Shown piece by piece: positions 24,483 through 29,210 of a stretch of DNA of 64,000 nucleotides. The notes beneath the pieces are model-generated. The model saw only the letters and a program-made list of their open reading frames with translations, was not told the DNA's origin and made no database searches. Each line of letters starts with the position of its first letter. Positions within the stretch are counted from its first letter, which is position 1. This stretch comes from an uncultured Chloroflexia bacterium (GTDB taxonomy: Bacteria > Chloroflexota > Limnocylindria > Limnocylindrales > CSP1-4). Where the stretch lies: contig CAWFXA010000001.1 of assembly GCA_963819655.1 (NCBI GenBank), positions 480,001 to 544,000 on the forward strand. The letters are read 5' to 3'. Position numbers and translations under genes: made by a program.

Positions 24483-24608
24483 GCGCGAGTCTAGTCACCC
24501 CCACGCCCGGCGATGGTCCCATCGCCACCCATACCTCCAGCGTGGTGCGTGGAGAGGCCACGTTGGATACAACAGGACGACGACCCTCGAGACCTAGGAC
24601 CGTGCCGT

Positions 24609-27297
24609 TTGCCGAGTTTCAACAGGGGCATCCGCAGCCATCGAGAGCCACAGGCAGGCACATCCGCTGACGCTCGCTCGCTCAGCACTGTGCCGCTGCG
24701 GCATGGTCTCGTCGCATCCGCGGAACGGATCCCCACGCACGTCCGCGTCTGGGCCCTGACCGCCTTCCTGGCGGCGCTGGCCGTCGTCGGTTACGCGGTC
24801 CTGCTGGTCGATCGTCCGGGCCGCGAGGTGCCGATCGCCATCCCGTGGCCGGTGATCGCATTCGGGTTCCTCGTCGCCGAGCTCAAGGTGGTGCAGGTCC
24901 ATTTCCGCCGCGAGACGCACGCGTTCTCGCTGAGCGAGTTCCCGGCGGTCATCGGCATGTTCTTCCTGCCGCCCGCGGAGTACCTCCTGGCTGTCCTCGT
25001 CGGATCGGCAGCCGCCTTCGTGCTCACCGGCTCGCGCCCCGTCAAGCTCGCGTTCAACCTCGCGAACTACGGGCTGATCGCGGTCATCTCGATGGCGATC
25101 CTCCTGTCGATCGCATCGCCGACCGGTCCGCCCGGCATCCGCGAGTGGGCCGCGGCCTTCACCGCGACCACGTTCGCGACGGTCCTCAGCTCGATCACGA
25201 TCGCCCTCGTCATCACCCTCTCGGGCGGCGCACCGCAATTCCAGAAGCTGCCCGAGATGATCCAGTTCGGGAGCATGGTCGCGCTGGCGAACACGAGTCT
25301 CGCGCTGCTCGCCGTCACGATCCTGTGGCTCCAGCCCATCATGCTGTGGCTTCTCGTGCTCCCGCTCGTGATGATCTTCGTCGCCTACCAGGCGTACATC
25401 TCCGAACGCGAGAAGCACGAACGGCTCGAGCTGCTCTACGAGTCCTCGCGGATCCTGCAGCTGTCGCCGGAGATCGATTTCACGCTCGTGGCGCTTCTCA
25501 GCCACGCCCGCACGATGTTCCGGGCGGAGCTCGCCGAGGTCATCCTCTACCCGCGATCACCGGACGCCGAGGGCCTGTGGGCGCGGTCGTGGCACGACCG
25601 GGACCCCGAGGTCTCCAGCCCCACCAGCGACGCCCTCCAGGACTCGCTCCACGATCTCGTCCGATCGTCGACCGGGCCGTTCATGCACGAGACCCGCGAT
25701 CCGGACGGACGCGTGCGACGGCACATGGTCAGCGCGCTGCGCGGCGAGTCGGACATCATCGGCTCGATGGTCATCACCAATCGGTTGACGGAGGGGACCT
25801 CGTTCGGGGACGACGATCTCCGGTTGCTGGAGACCCTCGCCAACCAGACGGCGGTCGCCCTCGAGAACGGCCACCTGGAGCAGTCGCTGGCCGAGCTCTC
25901 TCGCCTCAAGGAGCAGCTCCGCCACCAGGCCTACCACGACCCGCTCACCGGTCTGCCGAACCGGACCCTCTTCCTCGAATCGGTGGGTGAGCGGATCGGT
26001 TCGACCGGCCCCGAGATGCCGGTCGTCATGTTCCTTGACCTCGATGACTTCAAAGTCGTCAACGACACCCTCGGTCACGAGGCGGGGGATCGGCTGCTGT
26101 GTGATGTGGCGGGCCGTCTGCGGACGACCCTGCGGTCCGGGGATATCGCCGCCAGGCTCGGCGGCGACGAGTTCGCGATCCTGCTCGACGACGACCCGGG
26201 TCTTGCCCGAGCCGAAGCGGTCGCCGACCGGATCATCGACGCGCTCCGCGCGACGTTCCCGCTCGAAGGGCAGGAGATCACGATCGGGGTCAGCATCGGC
26301 ATCGCCGCGGCCCGATCGGGCATCAGCGCGGACGAACTGCTGCGCAACGCGGATGTCGCCATGTACACGGCGAAGGCCACCGGCAAGAACAGGGTCTCGG
26401 TCTTCGAGCCGACCGTCCATGCCGCGATCGTCGCCCGCCACGAGCTGAGCGCCGAGCTGTCGCGCAGCCTCGGTCGCGGCGAGCTCCACGTCTTCTACCA
26501 GCCGATCGTGGAGTTGGCGACCCGTCGCGTGACCGGGGTCGAGGCATTGATCCGCTGGCAGCATCCGGTCCGCGGCCTGATCGGCCCGAGCGAGTTCGTG
26601 CACCTCGCCGAGGAGACGCGCCTGATCCGGCCGCTCGGTCGCTGGGTCCTGCTCGAGGCCTGCCGCCAGGCCGCCGACTGGGCCGCGGTCATCCCGGGCG
26701 GCGACGACCTGACGATGTCGGTCAACCTGTCCGCGCAACAGCTCCAGGAGCCCGACTTCGTCAACGACCTCCGCCAGATCATCGCCGACACCGGCATCCG
26801 CCCCCACCAGCTCGTCCTCGAGATGACCGAGACGGTCATGTTCCACGACACGCTGACGACCCTGTCCCGGCTTGCAGCCATCCGCGACCTGGGCGTGCGC
26901 ATCGCGATCGACGACTTCGGGACCGGCTACTCGTCGCTCGGCTACCTCCGCCGCTTCCGGGTCGACATCCTCAAGATCGCGCGCGACTTCATCGGACCGG
27001 CAGAGCGCGAAGAGGAGTGGGCGTTCGCGAGCGCGATCGTCGCGATCGGTCGATCACTCGGAGTGACGATGGTCGCCGAGGGCATCGAGGAGACCGGTCA
27101 GCTCGATCGGCTGCTCGCGCTGGGGTGCGAGCTTGGCCAGGGATACCTGTTCGCCCGCGCCAGCTCGGGCCGAGGACATCGGCGCGCTGCTCGGCGTCGA
27201 GCCGGCGGCGAGTCGCGCGACCGGGGAGCGGGCCGCCAAGGGCGGAACAGTGGCGTCGTCGGGCCGGCGACGGACCATGGCCATCGATCCGACCTAG
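24609..27297 (+). CDS. multi-TM sensor + GAF-like + GGDEF-EAL protein; frameshift near 27168
   Basis: About 7 TM segments, then DLRLLETLANQTAVALEN, HDPLTGLPNR, RSGD..GGDEF, VEALIR, DDFGTGYSSL, QGYLF. After the frameshift it reads AEDIGALL...MAIDPT* (TAG 27295-27297). Start uncertain. Confidence 0.85.
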
Positions 27298-27318
27298 GCC
27301 TGGGTTACCGAAGCCATC

Positions 27319-27915
27319 ATGTTCATCCTGTACGCGCTCGTGATCGGCGTCGGGGTCGGGCTCGCCCTCGGTGGGCGCCCCGCAGGGCTCGGCAGCCTGC
27401 GGTTCCGCTGGTCGGGCGTGATGCTCGCCGGGCTGCTCGTCCAGGTCGTGCTGTTCTCCGACGCGGTCGCGGGACGCATCGGCGCGCTCGGACCGCCGAT
27501 CTACGTGGCGTCGACCGTGTTGGTGCTCGCCGCAGTCGTCGCCAACCGCTCCATCCCGGGCATGGCCATCGTCGCGCTGGGCGCAGTGAGCAACCTTGCC
27601 GCGATCGTCGCCAACGGCGGGTACATGCCGGCGGCCCGATCCGCCCTGGACGCCCTCGGCAAGACCGATCCGACGACGTATTCCAACAGTGCGACCGTCG
27701 AGCATCCGGCCCTCGGGCCGCTGACGGACATCTTCGCGATGCCCTCGTGGCTGCCCTTCGCGAACGTGTTCAGCGTCGGCGATATCCTCATCGTCGCCGG
27801 TGTCGTGACGACGATCGTCCTGGCGATGCGGAGCCCCGCGCAGGACGGCGAAATGGGCAGGGGTGCCCCCGAGCAACTCCCCCATCCAGCCGACCTCGCC
27901 AGTACGGTCGAGTGA
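27319..27915 (+). CDS. DUF5317-family membrane protein
   Basis: Family-like motifs GG...L..LRFRW, SNLAAIVANGGYMP and LTDIF...VFSVGD, recognised from memory. Confidence 0.8.
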   Translation: MFILYALVIGVGVGLALGGRPAGLGSLRFRWSGVMLAGLLVQVVLFSDAVAGRIGALGPPIYVASTVLVLAAVVANRSIPGMAIVALGAVSNLAAIVANGGYMPAARSALDALGKTDPTTYSNSATVEHPALGPLTDIFAMPSWLPFANVFSVGDILIVAGVVTTIVLAMRSPAQDGEMGRGAPEQLPHPADLASTVE

Positions 27916-27975
27916 CTGGTCCCGCGTCCTCGCCGGCCGCACCATCCCGAACGAGGGACGCTCGTCCCCCCGCTA

Positions 27976-28057
27976 ACCGGATCGTCCAGGGCAAACCCGT
28001 CGCGAGGCGGGGACGCAAAGCCAGGGATCTCTCATTCGAGACCGCCCGGCTGCCGGT
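27976..28057 (+). ncRNA. c-di-GMP-I (GEMM) riboswitch aptamer
   Basis: CAGGGCAAACCCGTC-GCGA-GGCGGGGACGCAAAGCC...GGCTGCCG matches the class I pattern GGCAAACC..GNRA..GGGACGCAAAGCC..GCUGCC. Confidence 0.92.
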
Positions 28058-28095
28058 CCTGCGAGCGTCGACCCTTCGCTGAAGAAGGAGAACGC

Positions 28096-28185
28096 GTGAA
28101 GGCGAACCTGGCGCGCTTCACCTGGGCACTCACGCTCCTGGCCAGCATGGCCCTGACCGTGGGAGCCGGGATCCGGTGGAACTGA
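28096..28185 (+). CDS. 29-aa signal-peptide-like small protein MKANLARFTWALTLLASMALTVGAGIRWN
   Basis: AAGGAG RBS 5 nt before GTG; GC3-rich codons; lies directly downstream of the riboswitch and upstream of a strong hairpin. Confidence 0.8.
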   Translation: MKANLARFTWALTLLASMALTVGAGIRWN

Positions 28186-28304
28186 CCGTGGCGGCATACG
28201 TCGCGGCCTCGACCGACCGGGTCCAGTCGACGACCGGGTACCACCCCGAGATCGTCATCGAGTCCGGGCACCGCTGGGGCTGAGTTCCAGCGAGCCGATC
28301 TCAT

Positions 28305-28335
28305 CGAGGGGCGCCGGCCACGCCGGCGCCCCTCG
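28305..28335 (+). terminator. GC-rich hairpin, probable terminator
   Basis: CGAGGGGCGCCGGC-CAC-GCCGGCGCCCCTCG is a 14-bp perfect stem; the U tract is weak. Confidence 0.6.
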
Positions 28336-28427
28336 TACGTGTCCGGGATGGGCGCCTGGCCTCCGGAACGGGGATCCTGGACCCACTCGTGCATGGTGCT
28401 ACTCTTGTGTGCATGGGAGGACCGCGC

Positions 28428-29210
28428 ATGACGGTTCCCTGGGTGGATGCCCCCCCGGAAGACGCTCGCCGCGCTCTTGTGCTCCATGATCGCCCAGCGG
28501 TCGTGGACCTCATCGAGCTGACGCTGAACCACGGTCTCTTCGTGGTCCGAGCCGCGCAGACCCTGACCGAGGCGATGGATCTCCTCGCGACGTGGCACCC
28601 GCATATGGCCGTCGTCGACATGGATCACGACGAGAGTGCCGACTTGCTCAAGCGCCTGGGCGCCTCCAATAACCTGGCGGCGAGCGGCACGCCCGTCCTC
28701 GGCCTCACGCGCCGCGGCGATCTGCGGAACAAGCTCAAGGCATTCGACCTCGGGGTGGACGACATCCTGGCGATGCCGTTCTCACCGGAAGAGTTGTTGG
28801 CCCGGTCGATCGTGATCACGCGTCGGGCTTCGGGGGTCGACCGACCGATCGTCCCCACGATCAGACTCGGCGAGATGGAGATCGACATCGTCAATCGTGT
28901 GGTCCGTGCGGGCTCTTCCGTGATCCACCTGAGCTCCATCGAGCAGAGCCTGTTGTACCTGCTTGCCAGCCGGGGTGGTCGGGTGATCTCCCGGGACGAG
29001 ATCCTGGACGGCGTCTGGGGCACCGACTTCGTGGCCGAGAGCAACATCGTCGATCGCCATATCCGGAGCCTGCGGATCAAGCTGCAGAACGACTACCGCC
29101 ACCCGCGCTTCATCGAGACGGTCCCGGGCAAGGGCTATCGGTTCATCCCGACATTCTCGAACCAGGGCTGGGACGGTGGGTCCGGCGCGGCCGAGGATCC
29201 GCCCGACTGA
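28428..29210 (+). CDS. OmpR-family response regulator with an atypical receiver
   Basis: GVDDILAMPFSPEELLAR plus a winged helix (SRDEILDGVWG, VDRHIRSLRIKL, IETVPGKGYRF). GGAGG RBS. Confidence 0.88.
   Translation: MTVPWVDAPPEDARRALVLHDRPAVVDLIELTLNHGLFVVRAAQTLTEAMDLLATWHPHMAVVDMDHDESADLLKRLGASNNLAASGTPVLGLTRRGDLRNKLKAFDLGVDDILAMPFSPEELLARSIVITRRASGVDRPIVPTIRLGEMEIDIVNRVVRAGSSVIHLSSIEQSLLYLLASRGGRVISRDEILDGVWGTDFVAESNIVDRHIRSLRIKLQNDYRHPRFIETVPGKGYRFIPTFSNQGWDGGSGAAEDPPD

Follow-up and report, generated by a model that had tools for sequence, protein, structure and literature searches.

A DUF5317 gene and its neighbours

We examined a DUF5317 gene and the elements around it in a 64,000-nucleotide stretch of DNA from an uncultured Chloroflexia bacterium (hereafter the window; positions 480,001 to 544,000 of contig CAWFXA010000001.1). 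Four parts lie in a row on the forward strand and form a conserved module: a gene for an enzyme of bis-(3'-5')-cyclic dimeric guanosine monophosphate (c-di-GMP) turnover with a MASE9-like membrane domain, the DUF5317 gene, a c-di-GMP riboswitch and a gene for a 29-residue mini-protein. A preliminary description of the locus had read the DUF5317 protein as a divergent relative of the lipoprotein signal peptidase LspA that cuts a Cys-less peptide encoded beside it. The c-di-GMP riboswitch and the tie to MASE9-type enzymes, which that description missed, change what the system is for. The features are as follows.

24513..27297, + strand: upstream gene; MASE9-like membrane domain (about residues 77-303) followed by GAF, GGDEF and EAL domains, by Pfam and hhalign
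27319..27915, + strand: DUF5317 gene, 198 residues, intact open reading frame; Pfam PF17248, E 3.2e-26
27727-27729, + strand: codon of D137, an invariant Asp of DUF5317
27781-27783, + strand: codon of D155, an invariant Asp of DUF5317
27981..28058, + strand: c-di-GMP-I-GGC riboswitch aptamer (RF03167); Infernal 65.8 bits (gathering score 59), E 2.8e-15, model positions 1-80 of 80
28073..28090, + strand: candidate expression platform, hairpin CCUUC-GCUGAA-GAAGG, covering the Shine-Dalgarno sequence GAAGGAG of the mini-protein gene
28096..28185, + strand: mini-protein gene, 29 residues, GTG start, AAGGAG 7 nucleotides upstream; product ends LTVGAGIRWN

The DUF5317 protein matches PF17248 with 92.6 bits over profile positions 2-150 of 151, above the curated score. 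The family comprises 3,721 proteins at E <= 0.001 among 8,000 candidates scored, and 2,614 representatives of 50%-identity clusters at the same threshold, 939 of them at E <= 1e-10. It is an accessory family: among 121 sampled Chloroflexota genomes (including the unpublished G078, which enters only these DUF5317 and LspA tallies), DUF5317 is present in 40 and LspA in 119, and all genomes with DUF5317 also retain LspA. Members were also present in Thermus thermophilus and Thermotoga maritima, from a control panel. Close relatives of the window's protein carry names that point to Limnocylindrales (Chloroflexota). In the window's genus 22 of 24 genomes carry the gene, mostly in 2-4 copies. A sister family of the same order with small genomes (about 1.0-1.4 Mb; G025-G040) has it in 0 of 16, at a completeness of 84-93%. 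An NCBIfam scan gave no meaningful match, and an ESM Atlas search returned no usable neighbour. No paper was found for "DUF5317" or "PF17248", nor for "HD-GYP" together with "signal peptidase II", in the searchable literature, with subscription journals and supplements outside its coverage.

The peptide that the preliminary description had placed next to DUF5317 exists; it is encoded at 28096-28185 on the forward strand, is conserved, lacks Cys and shows a coding pattern. We collected 80 related loci with a 12-row DUF5317 alignment and 35 control loci around LspA genes; a hidden Markov model (HMM) of the mini-protein family matched 59/80 of the former and 0/35 of the latter. When the whole genome was scanned with this HMM (60,274 stop-to-stop tails), only two significant matches were obtained, both just downstream of DUF5317 genes. 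The 94 distinct DNA versions of the mini-protein differ at 0.39, 0.30 and 0.52 differences per site at codon positions 1, 2 and 3, respectively, and the open reading frame is a real coding gene. A GTG stands immediately before the conserved Lys in 58 of these versions, and the upstream stretches, examined for 15 of the 94, mostly carry a GGAG-type Shine-Dalgarno sequence. Pfam and NCBIfam scans of the mini-protein gave no family match.

In the family as a whole, the N-region has Lys or Arg in 94/94 versions and Arg five residues later in 92/94, and is followed by a hydrophobic stretch of about 17-19 residues. The end reads [LVI]-x-Ala (94/94)-Gly (85/94)-x-Arg/Lys (94/94)-Trp (94/94), with 0-4 variable residues after it in most versions; the residue after the invariant Ala is Gly in 85, Ala in 6, Trp in 2, Glu in 1 and Cys in 0. 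The copy in the window has K2 and R7 in its basic N-region, about 17 hydrophobic residues and the end V-G-A24-G25-I-R27-W28-N. Judged by its residues, this layout resembles a type II signal peptide that lacks the Cys and carries hardly anything behind it. The mini-proteins fall into sub-types A and B, which are often found in tandem. Elsewhere in the genome an orphan open reading frame (G000:C2:109913-110050, +) ends ILAIALTLVAARRW and has a mini-protein-like build (HMM E 0.11); it has no adjoining DUF5317 gene and no Rfam riboswitch nearby.

The riboswitch ends 38 nucleotides upstream of the start codon of the mini-protein gene, and is the sole Rfam hit in the window. The GGC variant has been grouped with the c-di-GMP riboswitch classes (PMC12452182). 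In 17/17 loci of one series (L035-L051; 14 RF03167 and 3 RF01051) the DUF5317 and mini-protein genes are separated by a riboswitch of this clan, and one is also present in L172 and L177, which brings the total to 19/20 loci scanned; the paralogue locus L001, which encodes a type-B peptide, has no riboswitch at the gathering score. The core pattern of the riboswitch was found in 48/80 related loci, 47 of them with the mini-protein, and in 0/35 control loci. Contigs from RNA libraries (four metatranscriptome runs) form a sharp pile at 27992-28043, the riboswitch core, and those near-identical to the window cover 27994-28260. These contigs were used for presence only, being blind to strand, ends and level, and DNA contamination is possible. 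The hairpin at 28073..28090 appears in both the minimum-free-energy and the centroid folds of 27975-28120, a stretch that is no more stable than its shuffles (z -0.41), and by covering the Shine-Dalgarno sequence it could possibly serve as the expression platform. A consensus scan of 27200-28450 for promoters and terminators found none. A second c-di-GMP-I-GGC riboswitch (L180; G000:C1:464653-464729, -; 64.6 bits) lies about 15 kb before the window and precedes a different gene, whose product has the look of a secreted protein and contains a stretch rich in Pro and Thr.

The upstream gene matches EAL (E 6.5e-72), GGDEF (4.5e-44) and GAF_3 (7.5e-9) in Pfam. Its membrane domain aligns to the N-termini of MASE9-type HD-GYP proteins over 220 columns in hhalign (probability 96.9%, E 1.4e-10); the window protein has no match to Pfam MASE9 (PF20972) at E <= 0.1. 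In 48/80 related loci the gene directly upstream of DUF5317, in the same orientation, is a GGDEF-EAL homologue, and 47 of these 48 also have the mini-protein, the exception being cut by a contig end. Relative to the orthologues at L035-L037 the window gene has an extra base (G) near 27157 (27150-27165), after the codons for GQGYLFAR, which puts its last ~47 codons in the +1 frame; the annotated long open reading frame, thus frame-shifted, overruns the DUF5317 gene and stops only at 28082. The extra base is probably an indel of the assembly, because the restored frame stops at 27297 as in the orthologues. In L035 there is a similar frame break further upstream.

The mini-protein gene is followed by that of an OmpR-type response regulator (28389-29210, +), next to which no histidine kinase was seen; only 2/80 loci keep this regulator, and it is probably outside the module. 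PadR, prephenate dehydratase and other window neighbours were considered as module parts and set aside, being kept in only 2-7 of the 80 loci.

Likeness of DUF5317 to LspA

All the motif strings named in the preliminary description are found in the protein (A86-LGAVSNL-93, N99-GGY-102, L135-T-D137-I-F and V150-F-S-V-G-D155), and D137 and D155 are, as it stated, 18 residues apart. It had proposed to check whether the family conserves these two residues. In an alignment of 73 members with 33-58% identity to the query, N76, L135, D137, S152, G154 and D155 are invariant. A wider sample consisted of the best 150 representatives of the 50%-identity clusters, uncounted rows being fragments that miss the column. 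Here D137 is kept in 130/130, D155 in 124/124, S152 in 125/125, G154 in 124/124, L135 in 131/131, N92 in 148/150 and G88 in 146/149, so that both Asp are invariant in this sample as well.

The genome has one true LspA (L004:1456-1986, -; Peptidase_A8 125 bits), with the invariant motifs G..GN117..D120R121, VVD129F and FN144xAD147. Its two Asp, D129 and D147, are 18 residues apart, and the same spacing separates Asp118 and Asp136, the dyad of S. aureus LspA, which lies near the outer membrane surface (PMC6952399); what the preliminary description said of LspA motifs and spacing was therefore correct. LspA is built of four helices, H1-H4, and a beta-cradle, with 14 highly conserved residues (PMC6952399).

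AlphaFold2 modelled the whole DUF5317 protein with a predicted local distance difference test score (pLDDT) of 93.4, and residues 50-175 alone with 93.7. Five transmembrane helices are predicted (2-16, 32-45, 55-75, 82-98 and 153-171), together with a structured loop, 99-152, predicted outside; residues 50-170 make up the LspA-like core. The density of Lys plus Arg separates the loops, with 0.22 in loop 17-31, 0.17 in loop 76-81 and 0.19 in the C-terminus, all predicted inside, and 0.04 in both loop 46-54 and loop 99-152, predicted outside. D137 and D155 are both within or beside loop 99-152, which is outside by the positive-inside rule, and because the charge density divides the loops in this way the Asp pair is predicted to face out, as in LspA.

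The preliminary description had suggested a comparison of AlphaFold models with LspA by Foldseek. With the core model, the first five of eight Foldseek rows are LspA chains (5dir_A, 6ryp, 5dir_B, 5dir_C and 6ryo_A), from entries named "Lipoprotein signal peptidase" in the Protein Data Bank (PDB), at E 1.2-4.8, a probability of up to 0.54 and a TM score of 0.48-0.53 (0.42-0.53 when normalised to the query). Foldseek and VIA-align both put LspA first with the core model, one of them out of 48,161 chains and the other out of 350,542, and the LspA rows have the highest sequence identity among the first ten VIA-align rows. Proteases of the GxGD type (presenilin or prepilin peptidase) were considered for the S-V-G-D motif, and none was among the fold-search matches listed.

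Profile alignment of the 73 DUF5317 members with 39 diverse Chloroflexota LspA sequences in hhalign (score 24-25.5, P 0.003-0.005, probability 7-10%) pairs D137 with the Asp of VVD-F and D155 with the Asp of FNxAD, that is, with D129 and D147 of the genome's own LspA. The pairing was unchanged with cut-down alignments (score 20.5, P 0.0059, probability 6.3%), and reversed-profile controls scored 12.9 and 15.3. The Pfam profile Peptidase_A8 (PF01252) matches residues 78-168 on profile positions 82-139 with 16.5 bits (E 0.0099), and is the most recurrent foreign weak match among DUF5317 members. DUF5317 thus fails Peptidase_A8 membership, yet resembles the catalytic core of LspA. Because a family named beforehand topped two structure programs, and a sequence-only method set the Asp on the catalytic pair, we consider it quite probable that the DUF5317 core is homologous to LspA.

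A number of results weigh against this homology. The Peptidase_A8 score lies below the curated cut-off of 25 bits, and only 4/73 DUF5317 members match that profile at E <= 1. In the profile comparison, 25 of 100 shuffles of 20-column blocks equalled the real score, although we give this null little weight because such shuffling leaves the motif blocks intact. The hhalign probability stays at 6-10%, and with a narrow LspA alignment (rows 72-100% identical) another region was aligned, at a probability of 5%. HMM and phmmer searches of PDB sequences with DUF5317 retrieved no LspA, BLASTP against the genome's own LspA gave no match, and no single DUF5317-LspA similarity score is significant. The best Foldseek E value for LspA, 1.2, is itself sub-significant; with the whole-protein model no Foldseek row fell below E 1, and LspA stood at rank 13 of a structure search. 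Of the 14 conserved LspA residues given in PMC6952399, seven (D21, K25, N52, G54, D109, R110 and V116) lack a counterpart in DUF5317. The claim of an LspA fold in the preliminary description is therefore upheld as far as the ranking of LspA in the core searches and the aligned Asp pair go, at scores that are all sub-significant.

The same weak scores could mean that the likeness arose by chance, from a three-helix arrangement that is common together with short motifs, and that DUF5317 has its own fold and some unrelated role, such as binding ions or lipids. The Foldseek E values fit this, as does the want of a usable ESM Atlas neighbour. So does the profile alignment: since a genuine distant pair of membrane domains (the upstream enzyme and the HD-GYP N-termini) reached 96.9% by the same method, the LspA signal looks real but faint. 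It is however harder to see why chance should bring a pre-named family to the first place of two structure programs, with the top identity of the first ten VIA-align rows, or why a profile alignment made from sequence should set both invariant Asp on catalytic Asp. An independent Pfam model weakly matches the same region, and topology and spacing agree. We regard a chance match as improbable.

Five genomes of one Chloroflexota family (L145-L149) encode, beside a normal LspA, a second, shortened LspA-like family of 124-176 residues, with sub-threshold Peptidase_A8 scores of 20.7-23.9 bits and the motifs GGLxGN, YATDW and TNVAD kept (G068:C65:79144-79350, G131:C6:61907-62125, G158:C50:26554-26760, G056:C163:2019-2225 and G080:C2:1157410-1157613).

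The module in a second arrangement and DUF5317 in other contexts

The third DUF5317 copy of the genome is fused to a major facilitator superfamily (MFS) transporter and follows a MASE9-HD-GYP gene. Directly upstream of this operon is a 29-residue open reading frame of a further sub-type, C, in which Ser or Gly follows the conserved Ala; it ends A-G-G-A-S-L-R-G-F and matches the family HMM at an E of only 1.9. Ahead of it lies a c-di-GMP-II riboswitch (RF01786; 62.2 bits, gathering score 53.5, E 1.6e-12). The order of c-di-GMP-II riboswitch, mini-peptide, MASE9-HD-GYP and DUF5317-MFS is found in 7/7 genomes examined; in the six besides our own, RF01786 is present in 6/6 (5 above the gathering score and one at 38.8 bits) and the mini-protein open reading frame in 6/6, one of them probably frameshifted at the end. 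Mini-proteins of one kind are thus preceded by two unrelated riboswitch classes, in each case next to DUF5317 and an enzyme with MASE9, and this is the strongest evidence for one four-part system. A literature search for small proteins with c-di-GMP-II and HD-GYP returned nothing relevant among the matches listed.

We also sampled 29 DUF5317 loci across the phylum, all from Chloroflexota. An HD-GYP neighbour is present in 16/29, with a PF20972 match in 3 of these 16 neighbours (E 1e-6 to 5e-6); a BTAD regulator neighbours 9/29, and DUF5317 is fused to an MFS transporter in 5/29. Among longer forms of DUF5317, fusions with MFS_3 or MFS_1 in both orders make up 4/21, and 13/26 in another scan. 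Small proteins of the Os1348 family of the NHLP clan lie directly downstream in 5/5 loci tested, one of them above the curated cut-off. In these five (L154, L156, L157, L160 and L164) DUF5317 stands between a BTAD-domain regulator and an NHLP-clan protein of 83-107 residues; the L160 protein also matches Pfam Frankia_peptide, and an HD-GYP or sigma-70 gene sometimes adjoins.

The mini-protein is rarer in this sample, and its distribution speaks against a general role as the DUF5317 substrate. It occurs in only 3/29 phylum-wide loci, 2 by HMM and a third, diverged copy in L175. Among the related loci, 20/80 have neither the mini-protein nor GGDEF-EAL, and no small hydrophobic open reading frame was found within 700 nucleotides downstream in the 17 of those 20 that were inspected. 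The absence of the mini-protein from most DUF5317 loci outside this class implies either other substrates or a lineage-specific addition.

One explanation along the first of these lines is that DUF5317 is an LspA-like hydrolase with other substrates, such as MFS cargo or the NHLP-clan proteins, and that the mini-protein acts as a pseudo-substrate under riboswitch control, blocking or tuning the enzyme. It would account for the MFS_3 and MFS_1 fusions in both orders, the genome's own third copy included, for the NHLP-clan proteins downstream and the BTAD neighbours, and for the many loci that lack the mini-protein. However, where the mini-protein is present it is tightly tied to DUF5317, accompanying the MFS-fused form in 7/7 loci, and the NHLP-clan proteins have no membrane segment with which to reach an intramembrane site. 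We think this explanation very unlikely.

True fusions of DUF5317 to c-di-GMP enzymes also exist, as DUF5317-GAF-GGDEF (P0154) and DUF5317-...-GAF-GGDEF-EAL (P0400). Fusion of this kind is typical of sensor domains and not of proteases, and so counts against a peptidase. It bears on the main rival to cleavage, in which DUF5317 is a non-catalytic membrane receptor or scaffold that binds the uncut mini-protein and signals to MASE9; as a small regulatory subunit, the mini-protein would join the other small membrane proteins by which sensors are tuned, and the Asp pair would perhaps hold the Arg of the peptide or a cation. In the fused proteins DUF5317 is an N-terminal membrane module, the usual position of a sensor. 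The invariant Arg/Lys and Trp of the peptide are predicted at the outer membrane edge, near D137 and D155, and the sub-significant LspA homology scores suit a receptor too.

A complex prediction for DUF5317 and the mini-protein bears on both possibilities. Its median score was 0.33 (0.42, 0.33 and 0.31), with 0.01 for the best of 3 controls; the runs share at least 82% of contacts, and the partner has a pLDDT of at least 61. In calibration the mark was reached by 58/80 solved complexes and 2/110 mismatched pairs, with no calibration chain shorter than 30 residues, and passing scores of 0.60 or less came from only 7 of the 80 solved complexes and from both passing mismatches. The model thus gives weak support to the pairing. 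Binding of this kind would fit a receptor and catalysis equally well.

Other observations are less easily explained by a receptor. An active site is a more usual setting than a binding surface for an Asp pair that stays invariant, together with S152 and G154, in 124-130 divergent representatives, and the pair lines up with the catalytic dyad of the very fold that tops both structure searches. What the peptide conserves most is a small Ala with another small residue after it, as cleavage sites have. Weighing these points, we consider a purely receptor-like DUF5317 rather unlikely.

A proposed c-di-GMP circuit and known systems

Our preferred reading is that DUF5317 is a relative of the LspA fold that acts in a c-di-GMP module, binding and cutting the mini-protein and so feeding back on c-di-GMP; we hold it tentatively and give it slightly less than an even chance. 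Beside DUF5317 the module would comprise a MASE9-like c-di-GMP enzyme (GGDEF-EAL here, HD-GYP elsewhere), a c-di-GMP riboswitch and a mini-protein of 29-33 residues. The riboswitch would set the amount of mini-protein, which would insert into the membrane with its N-terminus inside. DUF5317 would then bind it in an LspA-like groove and cut after the invariant Ala, in the window at A24|G25. The intact or the cut peptide may act in the membrane on the MASE9 domain, with feedback on c-di-GMP as the outcome.

Cleavage at Ala24|Gly25 is suggested by the residues of the peptide. For the substrate named in the preliminary description, conservation of the peptide, its signal-peptide-like build and the invariant Ala before Gly all fit, and the predicted complex leans weakly the same way; the cut itself we infer. 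One feature tells against it, in that a cut at this site would release only 4-8 residues, odd for a product.

In its most specific form the proposal is a c-di-GMP feedback circuit not described before: two unrelated riboswitch classes would control the mini-protein, DUF5317 as a cradle-less LspA relative would cut it after the Ala, and either the helix left in the membrane or the 4-8-residue end set free would be the long-sought intramembrane ligand of MASE9 and tune the adjacent diguanylate cyclase or phosphodiesterase. Taken in full, this is doubtful. If it were true, the mini-proteins would be the first non-lipoprotein substrate class of the LspA fold, DUF5317 and MASE9 would gain their first functions, and these riboswitches would have a new kind of target gene. 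To our knowledge LspA has so far been regarded as having no relatives and as purely lipoprotein-processing, and the scope of this antibiotic-target fold would be broader if a large accessory family shared its catalytic core. Three unknowns, namely the function of DUF5317, the ligand of MASE9 and the targets of c-di-GMP riboswitches in Chloroflexota, would become one testable system. Genes under riboswitch control can, moreover, be mini open reading frames that gene callers skip.

The system can be compared with several that are known. The riboswitches resemble known c-di-GMP riboswitches (RF03167, RF01051 and RF01786), being full-length matches above curated scores that lie ahead of an open reading frame. 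They differ in the gene controlled, which here encodes a mini-protein of 29-33 residues that automatic annotation would overlook. MASE9 has been described as a membrane sensor domain whose ligand is probably bound within the membrane (bioRxiv 10.1101/2021.11.05.467447), and the upstream partner of DUF5317 bears MASE9 or a closely related domain. That proposal would fit a membrane peptide as the ligand, although the available passages of the same paper mention no DUF5317, small peptide or riboswitch, and the domain in the window is assigned by hhalign to HD-GYP N-termini and not by Pfam.

Peptide-pheromone precursors of Firmicutes are lipoprotein signal peptides or small hydrophobic peptides that are processed in the membrane by LspA and Eep. 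Like them, the mini-protein is a very short precursor with a basic N-terminus, a hydrophobic body, a conserved end and the gene of a membrane protease, here a putative one, nearby. The protease family is a different one, no importer or receptor was found at our loci, and the link is to c-di-GMP enzymes and riboswitches rather than to receptors of the Rgg/PlcR type. In bacteriocin ABC exporters, a C39 peptidase is fused to the transporter, and DUF5317-MFS would similarly join a putative peptidase domain to an exporter; here the transporter is MFS and not ABC, the putative peptidase is intramembrane, and no bacteriocin-like cargo was seen.

The closest comparison is with LspA itself (Pfam PF01252; structures 5DIR, 6RYO and 6RYP), an enzyme that cleaves prolipoproteins and is inhibited by globomycin or myxovirescin. 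Both proteins have a three-helix core with an outside loop (helices H2-H4 of LspA), two Asp at a spacing of 18 residues, of which one closes a loop strand and the other opens the last helix, a G-x3-N in the preceding helix (G88 and N92 in DUF5317), F-x-x-small-D at the second Asp and an active side that faces outward, in DUF5317 by prediction. In contrast to LspA, DUF5317 has two additional N-terminal helices and a ~33-residue insert ahead of the first Asp, an invariant Ser stands where FNxAD has its Asn, A95-I96 (Ile in 139/150) takes the place of the Asp-Arg that follows G-x3-N in LspA, and the gene is not beside ileS. The beta-cradle with Asn52 and Gly54 is also absent, loop 46-54 being ~9 residues with a short helix and no sheet. 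The last three helices and the outside loop of DUF5317 may derive from the LspA fold, with both putative catalytic Asp kept at the outer face; two N-terminal helices would have been gained, whereas the two LspA features that deal with the lipid-modified Cys, its beta-cradle and its Asp-Arg pair, would have been lost. Like the substrates of LspA, the candidate substrate starts with a basic N-region, continues with a hydrophobic helix and has a small residue ahead of the putative cut; it differs in lacking the Cys, which in the LspA lipobox is a diacylglyceryl-Cys at +1. Loss of the cradle and of the Asp-Arg pair would thus match the loss of the lipid-modified Cys in the candidate substrate.

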